A DNA stretch of 36,994 bases from Parcubacteria group bacterium ADurb.Bin247. GTDB taxonomy: Bacteria > Patescibacteriota > Minisyncoccia > Minisyncoccales > CSSED10-335. The position numbers were made by a program, and so were the translations under genes. The stretch spans positions 1 to 36,994 of the forward strand of contig MWBX01000004.1 of assembly GCA_002069755.1 (NCBI GenBank), written 5' to 3'. The notes under the pieces were generated by a model. It was not told where the DNA came from, searched no databases, and was given only the letters and a program-made list of their open reading frames with translations. This document shows positions 355-21,626 of this stretch, piece after piece (the first letter of the stretch is position 1; each line of letters opens with the position of its first letter).

Positions 355-1878
355 TTAAACTAAATCTTTTCTTAACTTCTCCAACTTTCTCTTAGCTCTA
401 GAATCAAGAACATCTTCTCTTTTTCTCTCAAGCCATTCTACTAGAATAGAAATGTGTTTTCTAAATAGGACAAATATAATTAGAGTAACGAGTAGTGGTA
501 AAATTACAAAATCAATTAACTTATTATTGGTAATGCCTGTTATAATATTGGTTGCCACTCCAGCAACAACGCCTTTCATTACAAACACCTTAGCAGTATC
601 ACTAACTGACTTAGAACCACTAGAAGCATAAACTGTATTAACAAGATTAGTTGATCCAATTCCAAATTGTTGTTCTTGAGCTACTCGAACATTAAAAGTA
701 ACTACCCTACTTTGTCCCTTAGATAAATTACCGATATTAATTCCTTGAGTTATGTCTCCAGCAGTAATAACATTATCAACGGTTAGACCTCCAGCATATA
801 CTAATCCATTAGGTAAAACATCTCTTACAACTACATTATTTGTGTATCCATCTGATTTAACTTTGATATAAAAAGATATTAACTCTCCTGGGGCTACAGT
901 AACAGAGTCTAACCACTCGGTGTTTTTATCTACACTTCTTACCAATTTTTGAATTGTTAAAGAATCTGCTGATTCAACAACTTGCTTAGTGCTGCAAATT
1001 ACCGAAGCTATTAGCGGAGAACCAGTGTTAACTCCATTTCTAAGATAATAATTATAACTTCCACTGCTTAAATTAGTGTCTTCAAAAAGGCCAAAATCAT
1101 TAGAGACTCCCCAGTTTTTAATCAAATTCTTTCCTCTAAAGAGTGAAACATTGTTTCCTTCACTGAAACTATACTCAACACTTATACTATCGCTTGTAAA
1201 TTCTCTACATTTAAGATTGCCACGAACATCATCGTATTTGTTAGTATTAAAACTAAATATCTGACCATAGCTTGTCCCACAACTATTCTGAGCCACAGCT
1301 CTAAAATAATATGTTGTATCTTTTGATAAAAACTCAATAGTTCTGCTAATACTATCGCTAGAATATATGCCTTGCTTGTTAGTAGAATTATTAAGGTGAT
1401 ATTGTGATTCTCCGTATTCAAACCAAAACTGAGTATATTCATCGTAAACCTCAACATCGCCATTCAATACTGCTGATTTAGAAGTAATAGATTCAGCACT
1501 ATATGTAGTAGCAACAGGAGAGTTGCATGTTGTGCCACCAGTTTTGCTAGCAACACATTCAATTGTATCTATTACGAGGCCACCAATTACTAAATGATAT
1601 TCATATACAAAGTTGGTATTTAGCCCTTTGTGAACATAACTACCACTATTAGTTCCCCATCCAAGATCTGCTATTTTAGAATTACCACTAAAAAGCTCTA
1701 CATTTTCAGATGCATTAAAGTATTCGTAGTTAATTTGAATAGAATTATCTGTTTTAGGACCACAAGTAATATTTCCACTAGTGGCATAAGCGGTATCAGC
1801 AACGACAAAAAACACAAGAAAGAAAAACATTATTGTGCTTAAAGAAACTATTCTGTTTTTAATTAAATTCATCATCAT
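355..1878 (-). CDS. Cell-surface protein: signal peptide, three Fn3-like modules, a DUF11-like repeat domain and a C-terminal TM anchor with a long charged tail
   Basis: Signal peptide MMMNLIKNRIVSLSTIMFFFLVFFVVADTAYA. There are two Cys-bracketed modules (SGNITCGPKTDNSIQINYEY... and RGNLKCREFTSDSISVEYSF...) and a WFEYG...TTYYFRAVAQNSCGTSYG Fn3-like module. A DUF11-like stretch reads VAPGELISFYIKVKSDGYTNNVVVRDVLPNGL. The C-terminal TM is LIDFVILPLLVTLIIFVLF, followed by a K/R/E-rich tail. Confidence 0.75.
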   Translation of the reverse strand: MMMNLIKNRIVSLSTIMFFFLVFFVVADTAYATSGNITCGPKTDNSIQINYEYFNASENVELFSGNSKIADLGWGTNSGSYVHKGLNTNFVYEYHLVIGGLVIDTIECVASKTGGTTCNSPVATTYSAESITSKSAVLNGDVEVYDEYTQFWFEYGESQYHLNNSTNKQGIYSSDSISRTIEFLSKDTTYYFRAVAQNSCGTSYGQIFSFNTNKYDDVRGNLKCREFTSDSISVEYSFSEGNNVSLFRGKNLIKNWGVSNDFGLFEDTNLSSGSYNYYLRNGVNTGSPLIASVICSTKQVVESADSLTIQKLVRSVDKNTEWLDSVTVAPGELISFYIKVKSDGYTNNVVVRDVLPNGLVYAGGLTVDNVITAGDITQGINIGNLSKGQSRVVTFNVRVAQEQQFGIGSTNLVNTVYASSGSKSVSDTAKVFVMKGVVAGVATNIITGITNNKLIDFVILPLLVTLIIFVLFRKHISILVEWLERKREDVLDSRAKRKLEKLRKDLV

Positions 1879-1923
1879 ATATCTTTAAAAACTTTAATTG
1901 ATAATTAAAACCTTTAAAAATAT

Positions 1924-1951
1924 GGGAATCAGGTTTAACATTCTGATTCCC
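1924..1951 (-). terminator. Hairpin terminator downstream of the high-GC gene
   Basis: Perfect 9-bp stem GGGAATCAG/CTGATTCCC with a 10-nt loop. On the minus strand it is followed by ATATTTTTAAAGG and lies 14 nt after the TAG stop at 1965. Confidence 0.5.
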
Positions 1952-1964
1952 TTTGTTCAAAGAA

Positions 1965-2861
1965 CTACACCCAAGCCCCATAAAGGAGCTTGCCATCACC
2001 CGTTTTGAGAACGGGGCGGACAAGCCCCTCGGGAGGAGGCATCCATACCATGATGCTCTCCCCCTCAACACGGGAGCCTGAGTTGACTTCAAAGAAGTCT
2101 CCCCAGGACTGCCCGCCCTCAGTCTCCCAGTAGAGCTTGAAGGGCGGTGTTGCCCAAACTCTGGCTTCGCCAGGTGTAACCGACTGAACGTCGGTCACAC
2201 CAGGCTGGGTTACCGTTGGCTGGGTTACCGTTGGCTGAGTTACCGTTGGCTGGCTCGGACAAACAGGAATTACTTCCTGTGTGCCTAGGAGGTAATTCCC
2301 CCTATTTTGGGAAACTAACTGGACTTTCCCTTCGGGGAATGTCCAGAATACCTCCCAACCTTGAGCCTCTAGCTCAAGGTAGGAGTTAATCTCCTCCTGG
2401 TCCATTCCCGTGAACCAGGACCAGTAGGTCCTAAAAACCGTATCGGTCTCCAAAACCTGCTGGATCCTGGCCCAGCTGGTTGGCCGTGAGGCAATAACGC
2501 CAACGGCCTTTCCGCCCGCTTGGGCATACCCTTGTGGATACACCCAAGCTGGGGACTTCCCAGCATTCTCCAGCGGTACTAAGACCTCCGAGAGGTCTTC
2601 GCCCGTGAGGCAGAAAGCCTCTTGGACGAAGACCCTGAAGGCCTCGTCCTCGCTCATAAGAGCGAGTACCTCACCCCACGTTCGTGGGGGCATCTGTTCA
2701 ACGATTACGGGGATATCCCCACTGCTGTCTCCCGAACCGCCAAAGGCGGCCAGGAGGAAGATTGCCACAAGGAGGACAAGTCCCCCTGCGACGATCTTCA
2801 TTCCGTGCCTCTCCAGCCATCCCTTCTGGGACGCTGGAGGAGCTGAAATTTCCTCCTCCAT
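1965..2861 (-). CDS. High-GC hypothetical single-pass membrane protein with a (PTVTQ)x3 linker; family not recognised
   Basis: This is the long ORF in the only GC-rich stretch of the window. I place the start at MEEEISAPP (ATG 2861) because GGAGG sits 7 nt upstream; the track start at 2924 would overlap the -10 box. The TM helix is MKIVAGGLVLLVAIFLLAAFGG. The other ORFs in this stretch look like high-GC shadow frames. Confidence 0.65.
   Translation of the reverse strand: MEEEISAPPASQKGWLERHGMKIVAGGLVLLVAIFLLAAFGGSGDSSGDIPVIVEQMPPRTWGEVLALMSEDEAFRVFVQEAFCLTGEDLSEVLVPLENAGKSPAWVYPQGYAQAGGKAVGVIASRPTSWARIQQVLETDTVFRTYWSWFTGMDQEEINSYLELEAQGWEVFWTFPEGKVQLVSQNRGNYLLGTQEVIPVCPSQPTVTQPTVTQPTVTQPGVTDVQSVTPGEARVWATPPFKLYWETEGGQSWGDFFEVNSGSRVEGESIMVWMPPPEGLVRPVLKTGDGKLLYGAWV
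2205..2249. repeat. 15-bp tandem repeat x3 (ctgggttaccgttgg, ctgggttaccgttgg, ctgagttaccgttgg) encoding PTVTQ x3
   Basis: Read directly from the sequence. The repeat is in frame inside the high-GC CDS. Confidence 0.9.
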
Positions 2862-2922
2862 AACTATCCTCCTCGACTCACCTTTCAAAGAACAAGTCTT
2901 TCTGTAAATCGAGATTGTCTCC

Positions 2923-2950
2923 ACTATACCAAACTATATTTTTTTGTCAA
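2923..2950 (-). promoter_or_regulatory. Sigma70-like promoter of the high-GC gene
   Basis: On the minus strand: TTGACA (2950..2945), 16-nt spacer, TATAGT (2928..2923). This is followed by a UTR of about 55 nt ending in GGAGGATAGTTATG. Confidence 0.5.
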
Positions 2951-3035
2951 GCCCTTGCAATAACATATTTATTATTGGATAAAAAAAGAAAAGAGGAAAA
3001 ATAATGGGGAGATGCAATGCACTCTCCCCTTTTGT

Positions 3036-3122
3036 TCATGCTACTATTTGAATATAGTAGCAATAACCCGTCGCCATTATTAATATAATAACGGCGACTA
3101 GAACATCCCATTCCAGCCTCAT
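3036..3122 (-). CDS. Candidate 28-aa hydrophobic peptide (MRLEWDVLVAVIILIMATGYCYYIQIVA)
   Basis: Hand translation; the ORF is below the track's size cutoff. Upstream are TTTACT-17-TATAAG with ATG 7 nt after the -10 box (leaderless geometry) and a GGGGG tract. Hairpin GGGGAGA/TCTCCCC (3006-3029) plus a U-rich run lies just after the TGA stop. This could be a chance ORF. Confidence 0.3.
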   Translation of the reverse strand: MRLEWDVLVAVIILIMATGYCYYIQIVA

Positions 3123-3140
3123 AGTCCCCCTTATACTTCT

Positions 3141-3181
3141 TTTTTAAAAAAAAGTAAAGTGGGGTTACTTTAAAACCCCAC
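3141..3181 (-). terminator. Rho-independent terminator of the sortase operon, overlapping the sortase stop codon
   Basis: On the minus strand: GTGGGGTT-TTAAAGT-AACCCCAC (3181..3159), followed by TTTACTTTTTTTT. Confidence 0.6.
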
Positions 3182-3752
3182 GAATTCCTAGTCTTTTAAT
3201 GTTTTTTCCTGGTGGCCAACAACTTAAAAGAATAATTTCTTCTTCTCCAGAATCATACTTGGGAACATCCTCTCCTACTTCTAGTATTATACTATCAGTA
3301 ATTTCATAAGTATATAATTTGTTATTGAAATATATTTTAATCTCTTCACCTAATTCAAGAGTCTCAGCTTTACTAAAAACCCAATCATAATTAATATTTG
3401 GCCAACCTGGCGGAGCTGAATGACCTAAAATAATAACTTGACCGCCCTCCCCTGGCAGAGATGATCCTGGAAAATGAGATACTCCCCTTTTTAATGCATT
3501 GTATATCGCATCATCTGATTCATTGTCTGGTATAATTAAAGGGGCAATAATATCAATTGCTTCAATTTCAATACTATTTTCTTTATCGTAGTAAATTACC
3601 TCTTCTTTTTCTTTAATAATACTTTCTATTCCTTCAATGGCATAATTACGATTAAAAAGCCAAGAAATATCATTCCAATTCAAAACAATAATGTTTACTA
3701 CAAACACTAATAGAAACATTTTTAATAAAGTATTAATTCTTGAGTTATGCAT
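3165..3752 (-). CDS. Sortase family transpeptidase with an N-terminal membrane anchor
   Basis: The catalytic triad context is recognisable: His in VIILGHSAPPGW, Cys in ILLSCWPPG, Arg in RLGIRG. The N-terminal TM is LLKMFLLVFVVNIIVL. Confidence 0.8.
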   Translation of the reverse strand: MHNSRINTLLKMFLLVFVVNIIVLNWNDISWLFNRNYAIEGIESIIKEKEEVIYYDKENSIEIEAIDIIAPLIIPDNESDDAIYNALKRGVSHFPGSSLPGEGGQVIILGHSAPPGWPNINYDWVFSKAETLELGEEIKIYFNNKLYTYEITDSIILEVGEDVPKYDSGEEEIILLSCWPPGKNIKRLGIRGVLK

Positions 3753-7519: not shown

Positions 7520-7547
7520 ATTATACTTATTTTAGAGGTATTGACAA
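7520..7547 (-). promoter_or_regulatory. Sigma70-like promoter for the membrane protein/AAA+/CAP/sortase operon
   Basis: On the minus strand: TTGTCA (7547..7542), 16 nt, TATAAT (7525..7520). ATG 7507 lies 12 nt after the -10 box. Confidence 0.45.
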
Positions 7548-7568
7548 GAAAATCATCTTTCTTATAAT
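7541..7568 (+). promoter_or_regulatory. Near-consensus sigma70 promoter facing the acidic mini-ORF
   Basis: TTGACA (7541-7546), 16 nt, TATAAT (7563-7568). Confidence 0.5.
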
Positions 7569-7617
7569 GCTCTTGTAAATACAAAAGGTCGAAAAAAGAC
7601 TTTTAAAAAATAAAAAT

Positions 7618-7788
7618 ATGATTATTGAAAAAACAATTATGCCACTCGTAGCACAAGACGAAGATGAATTAGATGAAATAGAAGAAGATTTAATAGACGA
7701 TGATGAAATAGATGATGACTTGCTAGACGATGATATAGACGAAATTGACGATATTGAAGATGACATTGAAGACAATAATGAAAAGTAA
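7618..7788 (+). CDS. Candidate 56-aa hyper-acidic protein (MIIEKTIMPLVAQDEDELDEIEEDLIDDDEIDDDLLDDDIDEIDDIEDDIEDNNEK)
   Basis: Hand translation; the ORF is below the track cutoff. A consensus promoter lies upstream and a hairpin sits 7 nt after the TAA stop. There is no clear SD. It is mutually exclusive with the Ser-rich minus-strand ORF at 7527..7775, which would contain the minus promoter and lie behind a strong terminator. Confidence 0.4.
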   Translation: MIIEKTIMPLVAQDEDELDEIEEDLIDDDEIDDDLLDDDIDEIDDIEDDIEDNNEK

Positions 7789-7922: not shown

Positions 7923-8837
7923 TTAAATAAAAAAACAAGAGGGCTTTTGTCCTCTTTTGTATCTGTCTTTGGGAACAATCATTTCAAACCTTGCTCCTTT
8001 ATTGCCAGTTTCTTTTATAGAAATTCCTGTAATTTCAAGAATTTCTTTGCAGAGAAAGAGGCCTAGCCCCGTATTTTTACCAAAGCCTTTATTAAATATT
8101 CTTTCTTTATCGGCTTCGGGAATACCAGACCCATCATCTTCCCAGATTATGACAAGGCCCTGATCTATCTCCTCACATTTAATGAAGATATTTTTTGACT
8201 GACCATGCCTTTTACTATTATCTAGCAGGTTATCAAAAACCTTGCTAATCATTGGATCAGCGTATATTTCAAAATCATGACAATCACACTGAATATTGCC
8301 ATAAAGTTTTGAGACAATATCCTCTATTCGGACCCATAACGGATCCTGACCCATATTATCGTAGACTCTGGTAAAGTCTACGATTTCCTGTATTTTTGTG
8401 ACCGCACTAGAAGCATCTTTTAAATACCTCAAAGATGCTTCGTCTAAAATATCTTTTTCTATTACGAAATAAAGATAGCCCTGAGCAACCATAATATTGT
8501 TTAAAATGTCATGGCGAGTTATTTGGGATAATAACTGTAGTTTTTGATTAGTGGCCCTAATAGCCCGCTCCAATCTCTTCTTCTCTGTTATGTCACTAAC
8601 AGAGATAATCACCCTCTCTTCTCCAAATGGAAATATATTTATACTAAATACGCTCCCATCAAGCTCATACTCAACAGTCTCCGACTGCTGAGTAACAAGC
8701 ACTTTTGCAATAACCCCTAGGGCTATCGCAACATCATCTTTCGGAATGATATCTGAAAGATGTTTTCCGACAATCCGCTCATTAGAAACCATTTCAATTA
8801 TGGTTCCTTCCTTATCAACAATGTTAACTATGTCCAT
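7923..8837 (-). CDS. Cytoplasmic PAS-domain sensor histidine kinase (orphan)
   Basis: H-box QITRHDILNNIMVAQGYL. HATPase_c N/G boxes: FDNLLDNSKRHG, WEDDGSGIP, FGKNTGLGLFLCKEI. The PAS-like N-terminal half ends in DITEKKRLE. I moved the start to MDIVNIV (ATG 8837) because GGAGGAAGAA precedes it. Confidence 0.8.
   Translation of the reverse strand: MDIVNIVDKEGTIIEMVSNERIVGKHLSDIIPKDDVAIALGVIAKVLVTQQSETVEYELDGSVFSINIFPFGEERVIISVSDITEKKRLERAIRATNQKLQLLSQITRHDILNNIMVAQGYLYFVIEKDILDEASLRYLKDASSAVTKIQEIVDFTRVYDNMGQDPLWVRIEDIVSKLYGNIQCDCHDFEIYADPMISKVFDNLLDNSKRHGQSKNIFIKCEEIDQGLVIIWEDDGSGIPEADKERIFNKGFGKNTGLGLFLCKEILEITGISIKETGNKGARFEMIVPKDRYKRGQKPSCFFI
7929..7956 (-). terminator. Possible weak terminator embedded in the last codons of the histidine kinase
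   Basis: Minus-strand RNA reads AAGAGG-acaaaagc-CCUCUU followed by GUUUUUUUAUUU. The U-tract is translated as FFI-stop. On this strand the stem is only 6 bp. Confidence 0.3.
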
Positions 8838-8905
8838 TTCTTCCTCCGCACAAATTGTAAAAGTGCTAATGACAGCATACCACATAAACTAATTTTTGAA
8901 CAGTG

Positions 8906-8977
8906 TGAGTCCAGATGGATTTGAACCATCGACCTTTCGGATGTGAACCGAACGCTCTACCCCTGAGCTATGGACTC
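8906..8977 (-). tRNA. tRNA-Val (anticodon CAC)
   Basis: Hand-folded cloverleaf. Acceptor GAGTCCA/TGGACTC, D-stem GCTC/GAGC, anticodon stem TTCGG/CCGAA with loop TTCACAT, T-arm GATGG-TTCAAAT-CCATC. No encoded CCA. Confidence 0.9.
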
Positions 8978-9030: not shown

Positions 9031-10692
9031 ATGCAAATATTTGAATTTCAATTTAATCCAAGAATAAAAACAAAAAAAGTAGAAAACCTCTTTCAAGAGT
9101 TTGAATCAAGTGAACGCAACTTATACATTATTGGTGAACAAAAAAGAATTGTTCCGGGAAATGAAAAATTCTTAACCAATATTATTAGAATGATAAAGGA
9201 CGAATATGCCCTTAACGAGCCTGAAAATCACGAAAAAGCCCTTCAAGAATGTTTAATTAAGATAAATGAATATTTTAAAATTGAAATAGCTAGAAATAAT
9301 ACTGGCTGGATAGGTAATTTAAACTTAGTAATAGTTTCTCAAGACCAAGGAGAAATTCATTTGGCTAAAATAGGTAAATCTAAAATTTACCTTTTGAAAT
9401 ATGAAAACCACTCTGAACTGAATAACAAAGATAAGAAAACTTCTAGCTTCTTTGGAAGTATTATTTCAGGAAAAATGGTTTACGGTGACAGGTTATGTAT
9501 CGTTTCAGAAGAATTGCAAAAAATAGTAGAAAAAAAGAAAATACTAGAAAAAATATCAAAAACCCTATTCCTAGACCAAAAAACTATAGATGAAATTATT
9601 GATCCGATTAAAAAAGACTTAGAAAAATCATCAGGAACATTCTTTCTATTAGATAACAAAAATGTTCCTAAAAAGAAAAGCGCCTTATTAGAAGAAATAG
9701 AAGTAGACTTTTCAATAAAAGAACTCTATTATAATATTAAAAGAATTGCCAATAAAAAAACACTAAAAATTGATAGTGATTTTAAAAATATATTAAAACC
9801 ATTAATTGCACTTGGACTAATACTTTTAGTTGGTTCTTTTATCTTTGGAAAAAAAGAAAAAGAAATTGCCAAAGATATTAATATAGAAGAGAGATTAGTT
9901 CAGATTGATATAACAAAAGAAGAGTCTCTTCCACTGCTAGATGCACTATACAAAGAAACTGAGGCAAAAGAAGTTCAAAATATTATTGATTCATTGGCTA
10001 AAATAGAAAGAGTAGACGAAATTAAAAAAATCAAAGAATTTGAAAAAGACATTAAAGGAATATTTCTAAACAACTATGGATATAGTGACAACTTAGTAAT
10101 ATCAGATAAAGAATACAAATCTAACTTGCCAATAGATTCAATATTTGAGTTTCAAAACAGAATTATTTTGTTTTCAAAACCAAATAAATTGTTAGAATTA
10201 AAAAACAATCAAATTAGCGAAATCAAACAAATTGAAAAGAATAACATTGATAACCTAACACCATATTTAGCTAATATATATTTTACTAGTGGCCAAGAAA
10301 TAATAAAATATAATTTAGATAGCTATAATAATTGGTTAAAATCTCCATTAAAACAACCGACTGACATTATTTCAATGTCAGTCGATGGTCATATTTGGAT
10401 TTTACAGCAGGGAAATCAAATATCTAAATATTATCTTGGTGAACACTTGGCAGATATTAATTTTGATATATTTCCAAGCTCTAAAAACTTTATTCAGATA
10501 TTAACTTCTAGTCAGACTGATTACCTCTTTGTCTTAGATTCATCTCACAATAGAATTATTGTGTTAGATAAAAATGGTAAACTGGTTAAACAAATTTGGA
10601 GTGAAAAGTTCAACAACCTAAAACAAATCCAAATATCTGATAATAAACTATATATCTTAAATAGTAATACTATCTACGAAACCACTATTTAA
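9031..10692 (+). CDS. Hypothetical single-pass membrane protein: possible degenerate PP2C/SpoIIE-like N-domain and C-terminal NHL/beta-propeller-like repeats
   Basis: The central TM is [20 protein letters not shown]. An NHL-like motif reads [25 protein letters not shown]. The N-terminal pattern [24 protein letters not shown]...[11 protein letters not shown] resembles the PP2C fold only weakly. Confidence 0.65.
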
Positions 10693-11113
10693 GTGTAATT
10701 GTAGCACCAGCTGCTTCAAACTTCTTCTTTATTTCCTCAGCATCTTCTTTACTTACACCTTCAGAAACTATTTGAGGTGAATTTATTGCTCCGTCAACTA
10801 AGTCTTTGGCCTCTTTAAGACCTTTTCCGGTAATATCTCTAACAATTTTAATTACCTCTATCTTTTTATCACCAACCCCACTAAGCTCAATATCAAATGA
10901 GCTCTTCTCTTCTGCATCAGTGTCACCACCAGCCTGAGTAGCCACAGGAGCAACAACAGCCATAGGCATAGATGCAGAAACTCCAAACTTCTTCTCTAAA
11001 ACTCCTACAAGTTCTGAGAGATCTAAAACTGACATATTAGAAATTTCTTCTACAATTTTAGCAAATTTTTCAGGAACTTGTACTTCTTCATCTTTCTTTA
11101 TTTCTTCTGTCAT
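10685..11113 (-). CDS. rplL: 50S ribosomal protein L7/L12
   Basis: Recognised from [20 protein letters not shown] and the C-terminal domain [24 protein letters not shown]...[11 protein letters not shown] prefer ATG 11113; the track start at 11128 is a TTG. Confidence 0.9.
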
Positions 11114-11138
11114 TTTTTTAAAAGCCAAATCTTATTTC

Positions 11139-11651
11139 TTAGGACTTGACTTGTTTAAGTGTGTAAATTAAACCTTTAATGTTCCCCTCCAATACAGCAA
11201 CGAAACCAGAAATTGGAGCTTGAATTGTTCCAACTAATTTGCCTAAAAGCTCTTCTCGACTAGGAAGTTTAGCTAATTCTAAAACTTGTTCTTCGGAAAT
11301 AACACTTCCATCCATAAACCCACTAACTATTTTAAGGTTTGGATTGTCTTTCGAAAAGTTATAAGCAATCTTAGCTGGAGAAATTGGATCTGAAAAACCA
11401 AAAACAACACCAACCTCTTCTTTAAGCTCTTTAGCATCAACATCTATTTGGTTATTTTTAAAAGCAATATTCATTAATGTTTTCTTAAAAACTGTAAACC
11501 CGGCATCGCTCTTTCTAAGCTCACTTCTTAATTTGGATATTTCATCCATTTTAAGACCTTTAAAGTTTACAAAGATCATTGCTTTTTGTTTTTTGATCTT
11601 CTCGTCTAAATCTTTAACTATCTCTTGTTTTTTTTCTTTGGTTAAAGGCAT
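11139..11651 (-). CDS. rplJ: 50S ribosomal protein L10
   Basis: L10 pattern KKQEIVKDLDEKIKKQKAMIFVNFKGLKMDEISKLRSELRK, located immediately upstream of rplL. Confidence 0.9.
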   Translation of the reverse strand: MPLTKEKKQEIVKDLDEKIKKQKAMIFVNFKGLKMDEISKLRSELRKSDAGFTVFKKTLMNIAFKNNQIDVDAKELKEEVGVVFGFSDPISPAKIAYNFSKDNPNLKIVSGFMDGSVISEEQVLELAKLPSREELLGKLVGTIQAPISGFVAVLEGNIKGLIYTLKQVKS

Positions 11652-11769
11652 ATTTTTTAAAATAAAAAACTACGTAAATACACGCAGACAAAGGACGACC
11701 TTTTCAGTTATACCTCGAGAGGATTTAATATTACCTCTTGTCTGCGGTTGATTAAACAATATCAATTTT
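11652..11769 (-). promoter_or_regulatory. Structured rplJ 5' leader (L10-leader-like)
   Basis: A 10-bp long-range helix CGCAGACAAG/UUUGUCUGCG (11746..11683) encloses a GAGG/CCUC hairpin and is followed by a U-rich run before the ATG. The family assignment is not verified. Confidence 0.3.
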
Positions 11770-12816
11770 TTAGTTTTTAGTCAAGAGATATTTCTTGGGC
11801 CAAGCTTCTAATGTTTTTGACGATATATAGCAAAATAAAATAAGGAACAAAAGATATATATAAAATCTACCCTCTTCTCCTAAATATTCATAAGTGTTAG
11901 TTACTCTGTAAAATTGATATATGATTAAATATACTGGGAATTGAAGAATATAAATCCCATAGCTAGCTTCACCCCCTTTTACTAACAATGGCCAAGATAA
12001 TATTTTTTTTATTACCGAAGTAGATGTTGCTGCTCCTAAAATAAGAAAGGCGAAAATTGGTGCAATTAACCCATTATGATTAATGAAATTATCCGGAACA
12101 AGCGGTAAATAAACTATTAAAAATAACATTGCAAGAATAAAATAAATATTACCATTCATCTTGTTTTTTAAAAACACCAAACCAGCCATCATCCCAATTA
12201 AAAATTGATTCAAATGGAGTAAGGGAAAGAACTTAGTAAAGTTTTTAATAAATATGTCTGTTTGATCTAAATTAAAAAATAACCACAAGAATATAATACT
12301 ACTGACTAACCAAAACAAAAAAACATATTTTGATATCTTACTATTATTAAAAAACAACGGAACAATGAAAGGGAACAATAAATAAAAAAACATTTCTACA
12401 GAAATTGACCATCCTGGAAAATTAACTGATAGCGCATTAGTTGGAAACCATGCTTGTAGAAAAAATAAGCTTTGAATAAATCCATCAAAAGAAATAGATA
12501 TATCGTTATCAACAAAAAAAGAGACAAAAAACAAAACTATAAGCGCAATAATATATAAAGGAACAATCCGAATTAATCTTTTAAAATAGAAATTACCTGC
12601 TTTTATGTAAGAAAATTCTTTTAATTCATTATAATTTATAATCATAATAAAACCAGACAGAACAAAGAAAAAACTAACTGCTAAATGCATAGCATTAGTA
12701 TAAGGAAAACTATTAAACGGAAAACTCCATTTTCCAAAATGAAATATCACCACAGCTATAGCGGCAAAAAACCTTAACGAACTCAATTGAGCTATAAACT
12801 TATTATTAGCAGTCAT
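11770..12816 (-). CDS. Acyltransferase family 3 (OatA-like) integral membrane protein
   Basis: N-terminal motif LRFFAAIAVVIFHFGKW, about 10 hydrophobic helices and WSISVEMFFY. Confidence 0.8.
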   Translation of the reverse strand: MTANNKFIAQLSSLRFFAAIAVVIFHFGKWSFPFNSFPYTNAMHLAVSFFFVLSGFIMIINYNELKEFSYIKAGNFYFKRLIRIVPLYIIALIVLFFVSFFVDNDISISFDGFIQSLFFLQAWFPTNALSVNFPGWSISVEMFFYLLFPFIVPLFFNNSKISKYVFLFWLVSSIIFLWLFFNLDQTDIFIKNFTKFFPLLHLNQFLIGMMAGLVFLKNKMNGNIYFILAMLFLIVYLPLVPDNFINHNGLIAPIFAFLILGAATSTSVIKKILSWPLLVKGGEASYGIYILQFPVYLIIYQFYRVTNTYEYLGEEGRFYIYLLFLILFCYISSKTLEAWPKKYLLTKN

Positions 12817-16710: not shown

Positions 16711-19383
16711 TCAATACAAATCCCGATACCTTAAATATTTATACAACTCCCCTATCCAAAGAACAAACGAAGACCCAATAATAATTAAAGTGATTTCTAA
16801 TAAATTAAGATGCACCAAATTAAAAACCGGATATAAAACATACATTGCAAGAAACTGTAATCCAACCGATAAAATCAATGCCCAAACAACATAAGGATTG
16901 GAGAATAATCCAATCTTAAAAACTGACCTTCTCATAGAACGCATATTTAAAATATTAAATAATTGAGTAAAAGCCATTGTAGTAAAAGCCGCACTTCGAG
17001 CTTTATCAATATCTTGATCTATAGAAAGATGGTAACTAAAGAAACCCAAGGTTAACACTACCATTACAAAAACTACTATTAATACGAATGGTAATGTCTC
17101 CCTACCTAATATGTTTTCGTTTTTCTTCCTTGGGGGGTCTTTCAAAACATCACCATGACCTGGCTCAGCAGCCAAAGCAAGGCCAGAAAAACCATCGGTT
17201 ACCAAGTTAAGCCATAAAATTTGAGTTGGCAAAAGTGGCAATTGAGTAAAAAGAGCTAAAGAACTAATTAATATTACATCTTCGGCAAAATTAGTAGTAA
17301 CTAAAAAACTACTAGCCTGTCTAGTATTATTAAATACTATTCTCCCCTCTTCAATAGCATTAACAATAGATCTAAAATTATCATCAGTTAAAACAATTTC
17401 ACTGGCTTCGCGAGCAACATCGGTACCAGTAATACCCATCGCAATACCAATATCTGCTTTTTTAAGAGCTGGAGCATCATTAACCCCATCTCCCGTCATA
17501 GCAATAATATGACCCTGGTTTTGAAGCTCTTCGGCAATTTTAAGCTTCATTTTTGGAGTAAGACGTGCAAAAACATTAACATCCTTTATTGCTTTAGAAA
17601 ATTGCTTATCCGACATAACTAAAAGCTCAGATTCAGTTAATATGTTATTATCTTTTTCTTCAATAATTCCGACCTCCCTAGCTATTGCTAGTGCAGTTCC
17701 TTTATGATCTCCAGTAGTCATAATAACTCTGATTCCAGCTTTCTTTGCTTTTAAGACAGACTCTCTTGCCTCAGGCCTTGGAGGATCAATAATCCCTACA
17801 ACTCCAACAAAAACTATTTCTGAAACCAAATCATCAGAAATAGTTTTTTCACTAGATTGAATCTTTCGATATCCCAATGCTATTGTTCTCATAGCACCAG
17901 ATGTTAGACTATCTGTTTTAGATAAAAACTCTTTCTTTTTACTACCAGTTAAAATATTTTCTCCATTATCGCTTAGATAATATTTAGATCTATCTAGTAT
18001 AACTTCTGGTGAACCAACGACATATAGCTCAGTATCTTCTTTTTTAGAAACCAAAGAGGCTCGATACCTTAACTCTGAGTTAAAAGGTTCATCTTCTATT
18101 TTCTTTTCCTCTAGTATATCTGATTTTAAGCCCGCTTTTTGAGCTAATACCACTAAAGATGCTTCGGTAGGATCTCCAATAACTCGGTATTTATCATCTT
18201 TTTTTAAAAGCTTGGCATTGTTACACAAACAAGCAATATGCAAAAGCTTAGCCAAAGAAGCATATTCTAATGGCGATATTTTGTTATCATTAAATACAAA
18301 ATCACCAACCGATTCCCAAGCATTGCCAGTAACATCAATTATCTTGTCTGATAGAGCAATGCTCCTCACATTCATTGTGTTTTGAGTCAATGTCCCTGTT
18401 TTATCAGTACATATTACATTAGACACTCCTAACGTCTCAGTTGAAGGCAATCGTCTCACAATAGCATTTCTATTAGCCATTCTATGAGCTCCAATAGCCA
18501 AAACAATAATTAAAATTGCAGGCAATCCTTCGGGAATACCAGAGACCAAAGAAGCTATTGTAAAAAACAAAATCTCTTCAAATTCTATACCCTTGTAGAA
18601 ATAACCAACAATAAATGTTGCTGTTGCTCCTAAAATAGCAATCATTGCCATCTGCTTGGCTAATAAATCTATTTTTAATTCAAATGGACTTCTTCGTCTT
18701 TTTATCTCACCAATATCTTTGGCAATAGTTCCAAATACTGTTTCGTTGCCCGTTGCCACAACTACAGCTCGGGCATGACCACCAACGACAAAAGTACCCA
18801 TCCAAACCATGTTTTTTCTATCGGCGACACCAACTTCTTTTGCTATCTTTAAATTATCTTTTGTTATTGATGTTGATTCTCCAGTTAAAGAAGATTCTAC
18901 TGTTTTAAAATTTCGACAATCAATTATTCTGGCATCGGCAGGGACTTTATCACCCTCCTCTAAGAAAATAATATCACCGGGCACTAAATACTTAGCATCA
19001 ATCTTTAACATTGCCCCATTGCGATAAACTTTAGCAACCGGAACAATAATCTTTTTAAGAGACTGAATTGCTTTTTCAGCACGATATTCTTGAACAAAAC
19101 CAATAATTGCATTAATAGCAATAACAAAAAAAATTATATAAACATCAATTGTCCTCCCATAAAACCAACCAATAACAGCAGCTGCAATTAAAATATATAT
19201 TAAAACACTATTAAATTGCTTCAAAAATATATATATTGGCCGGCTACCTTCTTTTTCTGTTATTTCGTTAAAACCATAATCATCTAAACGATTTTTGGCT
19301 TCACTTTCAGACAAGCCACCCTCATCTGATTTAATATCATTTAATGCTTCTCTTGGTGATAATAAATAGAAAGATTTATCCAT
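16711..19383 (-). CDS. P-type II cation-transporting ATPase (Ca2+/Mg2+ type)
   Basis: Motifs TGES, PEGLPA, CTDKTGTLTQN, TGDHKGTA, GDGVNDAPALKKADIGIAMG, and about 10 TM helices. Confidence 0.9.
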   Translation of the reverse strand: MDKSFYLLSPREALNDIKSDEGGLSESEAKNRLDDYGFNEITEKEGSRPIYIFLKQFNSVLIYILIAAAVIGWFYGRTIDVYIIFFVIAINAIIGFVQEYRAEKAIQSLKKIIVPVAKVYRNGAMLKIDAKYLVPGDIIFLEEGDKVPADARIIDCRNFKTVESSLTGESTSITKDNLKIAKEVGVADRKNMVWMGTFVVGGHARAVVVATGNETVFGTIAKDIGEIKRRRSPFELKIDLLAKQMAMIAILGATATFIVGYFYKGIEFEEILFFTIASLVSGIPEGLPAILIIVLAIGAHRMANRNAIVRRLPSTETLGVSNVICTDKTGTLTQNTMNVRSIALSDKIIDVTGNAWESVGDFVFNDNKISPLEYASLAKLLHIACLCNNAKLLKKDDKYRVIGDPTEASLVVLAQKAGLKSDILEEKKIEDEPFNSELRYRASLVSKKEDTELYVVGSPEVILDRSKYYLSDNGENILTGSKKKEFLSKTDSLTSGAMRTIALGYRKIQSSEKTISDDLVSEIVFVGVVGIIDPPRPEARESVLKAKKAGIRVIMTTGDHKGTALAIAREVGIIEEKDNNILTESELLVMSDKQFSKAIKDVNVFARLTPKMKLKIAEELQNQGHIIAMTGDGVNDAPALKKADIGIAMGITGTDVAREASEIVLTDDNFRSIVNAIEEGRIVFNNTRQASSFLVTTNFAEDVILISSLALFTQLPLLPTQILWLNLVTDGFSGLALAAEPGHGDVLKDPPRKKNENILGRETLPFVLIVVFVMVVLTLGFFSYHLSIDQDIDKARSAAFTTMAFTQLFNILNMRSMRRSVFKIGLFSNPYVVWALILSVGLQFLAMYVLYPVFNLVHLNLLEITLIIIGSSFVLWIGELYKYLRYRDLY

Positions 19384-19384
19384 A

Positions 19385-20029
19385 TTAAAATATTTTTTTA
19401 TTCTTATCTCTCCACTCCTCTATCTTTTTATGATTTCCAGATAATAAAACTTTAGGAACACTCCAATTATTATAAACAGAGGGTCTAGTAAATTGAGGAT
19501 ATTCTATTGCATTAACATTTTTAGTTCTATTCTTTAAAAATTTATCTGTGCCAACAACTCCAGGAATAAGACGAGCAACCGATTCTATAACAATCATAGC
19601 TGGAATTTCTCCACCCATTAAAATATAATCTCCTATTGATATTTCTTCATCAGCAATATGTTTGGCTACCCTTTCATCTACTCCTTCATATCGCCCACAA
19701 ATCATAATAATTTGATCCATTTTAGATAAACGATTGGCAATTCTCTGATTATACTTTTTACCTCTTGGACTAAAAAGAATAACCCGAGATTTACCATTTT
19801 TTTTAACCGCTTCAACTGCTTTAAATATTGGCTCAATCATCATTACCATACCTACCCCACCACCAAATGGTTTATCATCTACTGTTTTTCTTTTATCAGT
19901 TGTAAAATTTCTTAAATTATAAACATTAATCCCGATAATATTTTTACTACAAGCACTCTTTAAAATTCCTTCTTTTTTATAAGGAGTAAAAAATTCAGGA
20001 AAAAGAGTAATAACTTCAAAATTTGTCAT
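19385..20029 (-). CDS. trmD: tRNA (guanine37-N1)-methyltransferase
   Basis: Motifs PFGGGVGMVMMIEP, CGRYEGVDERV, SIGDYILMGGE. Confidence 0.9.
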   Translation of the reverse strand: MTNFEVITLFPEFFTPYKKEGILKSACSKNIIGINVYNLRNFTTDKRKTVDDKPFGGGVGMVMMIEPIFKAVEAVKKNGKSRVILFSPRGKKYNQRIANRLSKMDQIIMICGRYEGVDERVAKHIADEEISIGDYILMGGEIPAMIVIESVARLIPGVVGTDKFLKNRTKNVNAIEYPQFTRPSVYNNWSVPKVLLSGNHKKIEEWRDKNKKIF

Positions 20030-20918: not shown

Positions 20919-21626
20919 TTAATTGCAATCTTTATTAAACCATTTCTTTACTTCTAAAGCTTTTCCAGCTGCATCTTCTTCGGCTGCTTGCTTAGAAAAA
21001 CCAGTTCCTCGAGCAATAATATTGTCGCCAAAAAAAACTCCTACTGTAAAATTCTTTCTGTGATCTGGACCTTCTTCTTCTAAAACCTTGTATGTGGGTG
21101 TAATTGATTCTATTCTTTGAGCCTCTTCTTGAAGTCTAGATTTATTATCCTTATCAAGACCAAACTTAATAATATTAGGAAGTTTACATATTAAGTTTTT
21201 ATTAATAAAATCTCTACACTCGCCATATCCCTGATCAAGATATATTGCCCCGATCAATGCTTCAAATGTATTGGCTAATATTGACTGCTTTAATTTTCCA
21301 ACCTCTCGATTCTCACCTTTCGATAGAAAGACAAAATCAATAAAGCCAAAACCCTCAGAAATTTCTGAAAGAATTTTAGTATTTACTAATGCTGCTCGTA
21401 AACTAGTGAGTTCACCTTCAGTTTTATCTGGATAATTACTATACAAATACTCTGTAACAACCAACTCGAGGACAGCATCTCCCAAGAATTCCATTCTTTC
21501 GTTATGACCTAATAAAAAACCAGGATTTTCATTGATATATGAACGATGACAAAAAGCTTGCAAAAGCAAGTTTTTGTTTCCAAAACTTATTCCAATGTTC
21601 TTTTCAAGTAAAGAAAAATCATTCAT
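20919..21626 (-). CDS. rnc: Ribonuclease III
   Basis: Signature NERMEFLGDAVLELVV, and a C-terminal dsRBD (GPDHRKNFTV...GFSKQAAEEDAA). Confidence 0.9.
   Translation of the reverse strand: MNDFSLLEKNIGISFGNKNLLLQAFCHRSYINENPGFLLGHNERMEFLGDAVLELVVTEYLYSNYPDKTEGELTSLRAALVNTKILSEISEGFGFIDFVFLSKGENREVGKLKQSILANTFEALIGAIYLDQGYGECRDFINKNLICKLPNIIKFGLDKDNKSRLQEEAQRIESITPTYKVLEEEGPDHRKNFTVGVFFGDNIIARGTGFSKQAAEEDAAGKALEVKKWFNKDCN

Follow-up and report, generated by a model that had tools for sequence, protein, structure and literature searches.

RNA viruses and phages such as MS2 show genome-scale ordered RNA structure (GORS) and hairpins in their coding regions, with a pervasive excess of folding, a dual constraint on the sequence and compensatory substitutions; these are RNA genomes, in which the structure serves replication, packaging or immune evasion. 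Structure confined to the leader is found in the 5' stabilizers and stabilizing Shine-Dalgarno (STAB-SD) leaders of Escherichia coli ompA, Bacillus subtilis aprE, Bacillus thuringiensis cryIIIA and S-layer genes, and the Rickettsia palindromic elements (RPEs) form a family of dispersed repeats that sit in frame within genes. With respect to base composition, the vls locus of Borrelia encodes a hypervariable surface protein and has ca. 49% GC in a genome of 28.6% GC, which has been attributed to a “strong selective pressure to maintain” (PMC11499132). Its variants recombine segmentally, inverted repeats are associated with it, and its coding strand has a GC skew of ca. 0.52 (PMC11499132). Here we report on a 36,994-nt stretch of DNA of Parcubacteria group bacterium ADurb.Bin247 (assembly GCA_002069755.1, contig MWBX01000004.1, positions 1-36,994; hereafter the window), in which a single gene on the - strand (1965-2861) forms an island of high GC content. 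Compositional islands are routinely read as the product of recent horizontal gene transfer (HGT), and the initial annotation of this stretch did so too; in this gene we find instead selection on RNA folding across the whole coding sequence (CDS).

The GC-rich island

The open reading frame (ORF) at 1965-2861 has a GC content of 57.1%, while that of the remainder of the window is 31.5%. In 300-nt windows (mean GC fraction 0.321, standard deviation 0.053) the island peaks at 0.60, i.e., more than five standard deviations above the mean, and the only other windows exceeding 0.42 are those of a tRNA cluster at ca. 16.35-16.8 kb. No tRNA or tmRNA was found within the island itself. In 30-nt bins, the GC fraction rises at the stop codon from 0.10-0.37 to 0.57 within ca. 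30 nt, and drops at the start codon from 0.67 to 0.40. The initial description of a high-GC island made up of one gene, bounded by composition steps at the ORF borders and situated between sortase and adhesin-like genes, is thus borne out. An overlapping antisense ORF was rejected as a cause of the GC content, since the + strand holds short ORFs only. The window, with genes for L10/L12, def, TrmD, S16, RNase III, NusB, RNase HII, DnaE, MiaA/B and GatB, is a stretch of ordinary core chromosome from a Candidatus Paceibacteria organism.

A chain of hairpins along the transcript

The predicted fold of the island transcript is a succession of near-perfect local hairpins, which begins with a 10-bp stem in the 5' untranslated region (UTR), continues through the CDS and ends with the terminator. 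Within the CDS (1969-2843, - strand), ca. 26-37 conserved local hairpins (6-18 bp in the stem, 3-7 nt in the loop) take up ca. 65-72% of the nucleotides. In the seven alleles available, the minimum free energy of the native CDS ranges from -429 to -537 kcal/mol, which is 88-147 kcal/mol below that of synonymous shuffles preserving the protein and the codon counts (z -8.1 to -15.2, all seven alleles). Nine other genes from two clade loci (CAP, sortase, adhesin-like and L10 in both loci) have z values of only -2.7 to +3.3, and GC-rich archaeal control genes values of -1.5 to -3.8; in these two loci a histidine kinase gene (see below) is alone in joining the island gene far below its shuffles. 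A coarse folding scan of the - strand of all 37 kb revealed two strongly structured regions only, 1921-3120 and 8161-8880. Three stretches inside native genes (10321-10560, 17281-17520 and 19681-19920, - strand) have a moderate folding excess (z -3.9 to -4.2), which is far weaker than that of the island.

The structure is conserved and evolves by compensation. The consensus fold of five sequences contains 324 pairs, that of seven sequences 261 pairs, and in both sets 91% of the consensus cells are paired, compared to 37-52% when the partners are slid by 1-3 columns. Double changes occur in 59 pairs and 107 cells, whereas shuffles yield 46 ± 5 cells (none out of 500 reached the observed number) and slid partners 13-30; the covariation score is 0.26 vs. 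0.055-0.095 in the controls. The five-sequence consensus folds at -412 kcal/mol in the sense and at -327 kcal/mol in the antisense orientation, and G·U combinations exceed A·C combinations by 214 to 36, or by 70 to 21 with a strand-symmetric prediction in which the structure is predicted without G·U. The selected strand is, therefore, the sense RNA.

This selection is also visible in the codons. Third positions are invariant in 38% of the stem columns but in 11% of the loop columns (Fisher p = 2e-6), the GC content at third positions (GC3) reaches 0.73 in stems as against 0.47 in loops, and stems are in a register that pairs third positions with third positions in 57% of the cases (33% expected), the register that leaves most room for synonymous compensation. 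The whole island mRNA is thus a conserved chain of hairpins, and this is the main cause of its odd composition: the high GC content is held at equilibrium because the conserved hairpins extend over the entire transcript and their stems are rich in G-C pairs. This architecture was overlooked when the composition was initially interpreted. The hairpins are all unique and have no copies elsewhere in the window, so that an origin from a repeat family, a miniature inverted-repeat transposable element or RPEs was rejected. Of 34 tetraloops, 6 are of the GNRA or UNCG type, a weak enrichment as an RNA signature. With Rfam 15 no match at the gathering threshold was obtained in 1700-3200; the best hits, also in a permissive run, were far below the cut-offs and intergenic.

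Promoter, leader and terminator

The structure is framed by clear expression signals. A sigma-70-type promoter, TTGACA-16(TG)-TATAGT (2923-2950, - strand), has 11 out of 12 matches plus a TG extension; it is invariant in four of five orthologs, near-invariant in the fifth (L008), and shares common descent with the promoter of the adhesin gene in the outgroups (see below). The 10-bp stem-loop of the 5'UTR (2872-2913, - strand; 5' arm 2913-2904, 3' arm 2881-2872) begins a few nucleotides past the transcription start, as predicted from the -10 hexamer, and reaches to the Shine-Dalgarno (SD) sequence. All its cells are paired in six sequences (100%), the stem is never broken, and 5 of its 10 pairs have undergone double compensatory changes. 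It is followed by the ribosome-binding window (2844-2871, - strand), which comprises the GGAGG SD (2872-2868), a gap of 6 nt, the ATG at 2861 and the first codons. From 2871 to 2844 this is, the variable linker of the gene aside, the longest conserved single-stranded stretch, with an unpaired probability of 0.5-0.7 in five of the seven orthologs compared to 0.27-0.33 over the transcript as a whole. Translation starts at the ATG at 2861: a GTG extension to 2924 would fall within the -10 hexamer, and all orthologs start with ME. At the other end, an intrinsic-terminator-like hairpin (1924-1951, - strand) consists of a 9-bp stem (GGGAATCAG/CTGATTCCC) and the T-run ATATTTTT. It corresponds to helix 37 of the consensus, with all nine pairs invariant in seven orthologs; the terminator scan did not list this - strand hairpin because its loop is 10 nt long.

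The promoter, the 9-bp terminator and the rarity of GGAGG that had been noted earlier for this gene were all recovered. A GGAGG SD precedes only 2 of the 33 genes of the window, the island gene and the histidine kinase gene. Native genes, including those for L10 and S16, have AU-rich upstream regions lacking an SD motif among the 33 gene starts, which suggests that the lineage initiates translation SD-independently. Approximately half of the Parcubacteria lack the anti-SD motif in their 16S rRNA (PMC9297842). Should this lineage be one of them, its own ribosomes would offer the conserved GGAGG nothing to pair with.

A second hairpin-chain gene

The second strongly structured region coincides with a gene for a PAS-HATPase histidine kinase of the Methanomicrobiales type (7923-8837, - strand), which carries a GGAGG SD and lies directly downstream of tRNA-Val(CAC) (8905-8977). 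Its folding z is -11.1 in the window, -6.0 in L001 and -7.2 in L021. In its consensus 94% of the cells are paired vs. 42-48% with slid partners, 23 pairs are doubly compensated vs. 1-5, and the sense fold (-225 kcal/mol) is better than the antisense fold (-162 kcal/mol). At the SD position its orthologs read GGGGA where the window gene has GGAGG. The L021 ortholog (GCA_015657915.1, 6007-6900) is frameshifted as assembled, the frame switching after “..YADPMIS”, and is either a pseudogene or affected by a sequencing error; the hairpin signal is kept.

The nearest relatives of this kinase outside the clade are PAS kinases of Methanomicrobiales (47-50% identity), and in the outgroups the slot downstream of the conserved tRNA-Val(CAC) is occupied by genes for a Na/Ca exchanger and an acylphosphatase; the gene was, therefore, transferred from Archaea to Paceibacteria. 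The possibility raised initially, that a host or partner of the cell may act as a source of genes, thus finds support in this neighboring gene. The class Paceibacteria includes parasites of Methanospirillum (PMC10936435, PMC9763046, PMC12281837), and the Methanomicrobiales are a known host group of Paceibacteria (PMC10936435). The archaeal homologs are not hyper-structured (z -1.5 to -3.8), so that the hairpin chain of the kinase gene must have arisen after the transfer. In addition, its GC content has fallen to 37-39%, indicating that hairpin chains need no high GC content.

Alleles of the island gene

The island gene occupies the same site in all seven lineages of the clade sampled, and the order CAP - sortase - island gene - adhesin-like gene is found in all contigs long enough to show the neighbors. 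A scan of GTDB genomes revealed one species of the clade. The seven alleles have a GC content of 56-60% and a GC3 of 0.56-0.68, between flanks of 30-35% GC, although they are separated by synonymous distances (dS) of 0.4-2.3. Polarized third-position changes on the terminal branches are balanced between those from strong to weak bases (S>W, 9-24) and those from weak to strong (W>S, 9-17). The per-site third-position rates of the island are 0.31 for W>S and 0.09-0.20 for S>W, while those of sortase and CAP in the same genomes are reversed (0.10-0.15 and 0.14-0.37, respectively). In view of this constancy over a wide range of dS and the balance of changes, the composition of the island is at equilibrium and actively maintained rather than ameliorating.

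The loci L001 and L021/L024 derive from near-identical genomes (97-99%), as shown by L10 (99%), a 561-aa gene (97.8%), the ClpB-like gene (97.6%) and the histidine kinase (96.8%). In the surface locus the identities are 94% for CAP, 92% for sortase and 88.5% for the adhesin-like gene. The intergenic region from sortase to the island is 96% identical overall and 100% identical in a 150-nt window that holds the promoter. The CDS of the island is, however, only 67.7% identical (dS 1.69), and this drop starts at the start codon and stops at the terminator. In its mosaic allele, L024 is 92% identical to L009 over codons 31-60 and closest to L008 in the C-terminal domain, and the middle is without a close relative. 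Divergent islands in near-identical genomes and mosaic alleles together show that the lineages recombine through the invariant flanks and in this way trade alleles from an old pool. Strict vertical co-divergence, which dS values similar to those of the neighbors had suggested, was rejected after the comparison of L001 and L024. Such a pattern is what diversifying or balancing selection typically produces in exposed surface proteins. No reverse transcriptase domain, as expected for a diversity-generating retroelement, was found among the scanned ORFs of the window, nor did a blastn comparison of the island with the remainder of the 37 kb reveal any segment of the gene a second time.

The protein product

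The gene encodes an orphan type-II membrane protein of 298 aa (1965-2861, - strand), characterized here by codon-position differences, transmembrane (TM) prediction, AlphaFold2 (AF2) and Foldseek. Its predicted layout comprises an N-terminal tail inside the cell, a TM helix (residues 23-41), an alpha/beta ectodomain, a Pro-rich linker and an Ig/FN3-like beta-sandwich (221-298). The ectodomain cysteines C84 and C201 are conserved among orthologs. The linker contains a (PTVTQ)x3 repeat (2203-2252, - strand), which is unpaired and not conserved; orthologs carry other Pro-rich linkers at this position, e.g., (AP)n in L024. The initial annotation had already described the N-terminal tail, the single TM helix and the PTVTQ linker and had recognized no family, and we likewise obtained no family match in Pfam, PHROGs, NCBIfam or a PDB sequence profile, the lone NCBIfam match being to the low-complexity AP linker and far under the cut-off.

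The AF2 model has a low mean confidence (mean pLDDT 55) and is confident for the C-terminal beta-sandwich only, and Foldseek retrieved generic Ig/FN3/CBM-like matches (E 0.007 or worse), so that an assignment of function from structure was abandoned. Kinship with the neighboring adhesin-like protein was also rejected, as BLASTP gave no match. A sortase sorting signal was not found: the protein has no C-terminal LPXTG-like motif or TM helix and ends in ..LLYGAWV, its anchor being the N-terminal TM helix, and an “LKTG” in the window allele reads LVTP or LEVQ in orthologs. A word-index search of 5.8 billion protein sequences retrieved six clusters only (57-100% identity), all within the clade, and the seventh allele (L024) was found by DNA. 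A full scan of 1.84 billion representatives with a profile hidden Markov model (HMM) returned no homolog outside the clade but only the gene's own cluster.

The ORF is nevertheless a real CDS that is translated and under purifying selection. Substitutions decrease from third to first to second codon positions, all indels are in frame, and dN/dS among the island alleles is 0.16-0.36, which rules out a chance ORF in GC-rich sequence. The topology, the Ig-like domain at the C terminus and the hypervariable, mosaic nature of the alleles agree with the role in surface or host interaction proposed initially. We infer that the product is a surface factor of variable sequence that works alongside the adhesin and sortase system, perhaps where the cell contacts an archaeal host. 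The gene is, therefore, a candidate determinant of host attachment or of phage/host recognition in an uncultured group.

Proposed role of the hairpins

The explanation that we favor combines a surface-protein gene restricted to one clade, an mRNA that forms a chain of hairpins, a GC content held by the stems, recombining alleles and a presumed protective function of the structure. Taken as a whole we regard it as probable. Its structural and evolutionary core is very likely correct, while the functional rationale for the hairpins is tentative and may well turn out to be wrong. According to this explanation, purifying selection on hairpins in the sense RNA would hold the GC content, with the SD-AUG window and the variable linker staying open. 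The 5' stem, the exposed strong SD, the hairpins of the CDS and the terminator would together keep a G+C-rich message full-length, long-lived and translatable, an atypical message among native ones that appear to be AU-rich, unstructured and SD-less. The hairpins could, for example, deny single-stranded entry sites to endoribonucleases or to Rho.

Several points weigh against this explanation. At 0.47, the GC3 of the loops still considerably exceeds the native ca. 0.2; selection on stems is, therefore, not the whole cause, and either GC-biased gene conversion or lineage-specific stems that are not modeled must contribute. The consensus fold prefers conserved columns, which inflates the contrast in rate between stems and loops, and the covariation is based on seven alleles only. 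Recombination among the alleles undermines a tree-based polarization of substitutions, which is, consequently, approximate. With respect to the rationale, the purpose of the hairpins is conjecture. C and G are paired to the same extent (73% each), which leaves a test of C-sequestration, related to the idea of Rho, uninformative. Histidine kinases are normally low-abundance proteins, and for such a protein a rationale of stability and expressibility is less obvious.

Alternative explanations

GC-biased gene conversion (gBGC) could be the main cause of the GC content, with the hairpins being a separate or secondary phenomenon. Homologous exchange would often bring divergent alleles together in heteroduplexes whose mismatches are confined to the variable CDS, since the flanks are identical, and GC-biased repair would push the GC content up and keep it there. 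In favor of this, mosaic alleles change places between near-identical genomes, the exchanged tract being delimited by the invariant promoter and terminator; fixation of W>S changes is raised; the loop GC3 (0.47) far exceeds the native ca. 0.2; and GC-rich hypervariable surface loci are known from the AT-rich Borrelia (PMC11499132). However, gBGC leaves the hairpins, the G·U bias, the phasing of third positions and the compensatory changes unexplained, as well as the much higher GC3 in stems than in loops. Moreover, the histidine kinase has a hairpin chain at 37-39% GC, and that gene is not hypervariable between L001 and L021 (97% identical). As the main cause we thus consider gBGC unlikely. 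Since it acts only where alleles differ, i.e., in the CDS, it may add to the GC content and could explain the high loop GC3; it probably contributes to the composition but cannot make hairpins.

Template-switch (quasi-palindrome) mutagenesis acting on G+C-rich foreign DNA could generate hairpins in a situation where the RNA has no function; by continually improving inverted repeats it would alter the two arms jointly, mimic covariation and accelerate divergence. The antisense strand is also far below its shuffles (z -9.9), the island gene evolves fast, and both hairpin-chain genes are clade-specific and arrived more GC-rich than the genome. Such a process would, however, not account for stem third positions that are slower than loop positions, for a 3-6 fold excess of G·U over A·C, for a sense fold 85 kcal/mol better than the antisense fold, or for a structure that starts at the 5' end of the transcript, spares the ribosome-binding site, stops at the terminator and is kept across dS values above 1. 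We consequently attach little probability to it.

The extreme, conserved and sense-specific structure over ca. 1 kb, together with an RNase III that is encoded at 20919-21626, might also suggest that the RNA itself is the main product, e.g., a large RNA that is structured or has a dual function, a scaffold, or a precursor for processing by RNase III, the ORF being a secondary passenger. This is very improbable in view of the three-periodic substitutions, the in-frame indels and the dN/dS of 0.16-0.36, the conserved TM helix and cysteines, the confidently predicted beta-sandwich, and an SD and AUG that are kept accessible; there is also no Rfam match, and the hairpins are simple and local, lacking the multi-helix junctions of large ribozymes and scaffold RNAs.

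Origin of the island gene

In the nearest outgroups (L018-L020) the sortase is 58-61% identical to that of the clade and synteny is kept for L12, ClpB-like, CAP, sortase, adhesin-like genes and MraZ. The genomic GC contents of these outgroup loci (GCA_036681025.1) are 52%, 39.5% and 38%, respectively, compared to 31-35% in the ingroup; base composition has thus shifted strongly within the family while gene order stayed fixed. In the outgroups the sortase gene is followed after ca. 100 nt by the adhesin-like gene with nothing between, and no homolog of the island gene was found in these genomes of 38% to 52% GC. Comparison of the sortase-to-adhesin interval among relatives, as had been proposed at the outset, hence shows a gene that is kept in the clade and missing from three outgroup loci: it is a clade-specific addition.

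In the outgroups, the adhesin genes themselves have a TTGACA promoter and a leader ending in “TTCTTTGAAAGGAGGAAG..GTG”. In L019 and L020 this is the sole GGAGG leader of the locus, and L018 has GGAAG. In alignment, the leader of the island gene equals that of the outgroup adhesin gene plus a 9-nt insert. The promoter, leader and SD of the island are, therefore, native and represent the ancestral leader of the adhesin gene. The signals that had led to the initial description of a self-contained unit do exist, but promoter, leader and SD were inherited from the gene next door. In the ancestor of the clade a CDS with its terminator was placed, or arose, between the promoter-leader-SD of the adhesin gene and its start codon; within the surface locus of sortase, CAP and adhesin genes, the island gene now stands first in the transcription unit of the adhesin.

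These data bear directly on the proposal of the initial annotation that the gene was acquired recently and horizontally from a high-GC organism, its composition being an unameliorated signature of the donor. The addition to the lineage stands; the recent timing and the high-GC donor do not. An atypical composition bounded by the ORF, the absence of the gene from the syntenic site in the outgroups and the demonstrably archaeal origin of the neighboring histidine kinase gene are all in line with a recent transfer. However, a GC3 of 0.56-0.68 is kept in seven alleles across a dS of 0.4-2.3, and S>W and W>S changes are balanced rather than downhill, whereas the regime of the flanks predicts a 3-7 fold excess of S>W. 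Furthermore, no donor homolog exists among the 5.8 billion sequences or the 1.84 billion representatives searched, the promoter, leader and SD are native, and neither integrase or mobility genes nor repeats or tRNA genes were found at the borders, which are flanked by sortase and adhesin-like genes. Recent HGT of the island gene is thus largely refuted and, in our judgement, highly improbable. Finally, the chance that the island is an assembly chimera or contamination, i.e., a high-GC fragment joined into an AT-rich contig, is negligible, since the sharp composition step is its sole support whereas both junctions (1700-3400) are 100% identical to the window in six independent JGI assemblies, and the junctions and conserved flanks are also the same in seven diverged orthologs from different samples and sources, in agreement with the original view that the step is no arbitrary join.

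Neighboring genes

Downstream of the island lies the gene for an adhesin-like DUF11/CLIPPER protein of 507 aa (355-1878, - strand), identified by Pfam and by the homology of its leader. It has no SD of its own and no promoter was detected in 1800-1924; therefore, it is probably transcribed by read-through from the island unit. From the island terminator to the adhesin start there is a spacer of 45 nt (1879-1923), almost invariant across lineages with a coding dS of ca. 1, which implies that it carries a conserved signal, for example a site for read-through or antitermination, a signal for initiation or an arm for recombination.

Upstream of the island promoter, on the side of the sortase gene, an element spanning 3006-3122 consists of a conserved small ORF for 28 hydrophobic amino acids (MRLEWDVLVAVIILIMATGYCYYIQIVA; 3036-3122, - strand) and a terminator-like hairpin 3' of it (3006-3029, - strand). 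The small ORF shows synonymous and conservative changes between lineages and is itself built of hairpins, the 240-nt window 2881-3120 having a folding z of -7.5. It is present in the window, L001, L004, L005 and L024, and absent from L008.

Between the ClpB-like gene and the CAP-sortase-island-adhesin block, L021 carries an AAA_2 ATPase gene and one VWA gene (10154-12690; compare L001 from 8170 onward). These occur in the L021/L024 genome and are absent from the otherwise near-identical L001. Close to the histidine kinase gene, an ORF at 7618-7788 (+ strand) encodes an extremely acidic 56-aa protein (..DEDELDEIEEDLIDDDEIDDD..) opposite a serine-rich ORF (7527-7775, - strand). This small acidic protein is probably real, because ingroup as well as outgroup loci have a gene of 52-56 aa called at the same position and strand.

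An L10 leader (Rfam RF00557; 11654-11765, - strand) scores 46 bits against a gathering threshold of 44 and is situated upstream of rplJ; the gene upstream of it encodes an acyltransferase and not L11/L1. Loss of uL1 and loss of the anti-SD co-occur in Parcubacteria (PMC9297842).

Implications and comparison with known systems

Folding selection, probably aided by recombination among alleles, holds one gene ca. 25 GC points above its genome over the long term, and an mRNA consisting end-to-end of covarying hairpins would provide a test bed for the superposition of coding and structural constraints. The same architecture in the methanogen-derived histidine kinase gene, these two also being the only SD-bearing genes of the window, points to a lineage rule for the expression of foreign genes. 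Such a rule in ultra-small symbionts would tie the clade to its archaeal hosts. One speculative and rather improbable reading is that in this clade the messages of incoming genes gradually evolve into hairpin chains headed by a strong SD, a route of domestication. A reason could be that, in an AU-rich organism lacking SDs, a surveillance by Rho or endoribonucleases discriminates against single-stranded RNA that is not AU-rich; a more radical one would be that stable, SD-bearing, GC-rich messages are delivered to the archaeal host and translated there.

Full-text searches of the literature gave no report of a cellular protein-coding gene with a covarying hairpin chain over its whole CDS, nor of such structure evolving in transferred genes. 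In comparison with classical genomic islands, the island gene shares an atypical composition and a clade-restricted distribution, and the histidine kinase gene adjoins a tRNA gene and has archaeal relatives. Unlike classical islands, the island gene is without a donor homolog or an integrase, repeats or tRNA genes at its borders, and has a native leader and an equilibrium composition. As in the RPEs, hairpin-forming sequence is translated as protein, but here the hairpins are all unique, have no copies in the window and make up the entire gene. With STAB-SD leaders the island gene has in common a 5'-terminal stem, which covaries, a strong exposed SD and a predicted surface protein; in contrast to them, ca. 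26-37 helices run through the whole CDS. Like in GORS and MS2, an excess of folding over shuffles is present throughout the coding sequence, although the island is a gene in bacterial chromosomal DNA with a sigma-70 promoter and an intrinsic terminator.

The composition has its closest documented counterpart in the vls locus (vlsE and its silent cassettes), another hypervariable surface-protein locus in which a high G+C content is kept in an AT-rich genome. The two differ in that a silent cassette array or an extra copy of the island is absent from the 37 kb, that the coding-strand GC skew of the island is only ca. 0.11 (G 308 and C 245 in the sense strand), and that vls has not been reported as a transcript-wide hairpin chain with compensatory evolution, while the mosaic patterns and allele replacement of the island gene are seen between lineages. 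The nearest known kinds are structure of the GORS type, mRNA stabilizers confined to leaders, and the GC-rich vls locus.

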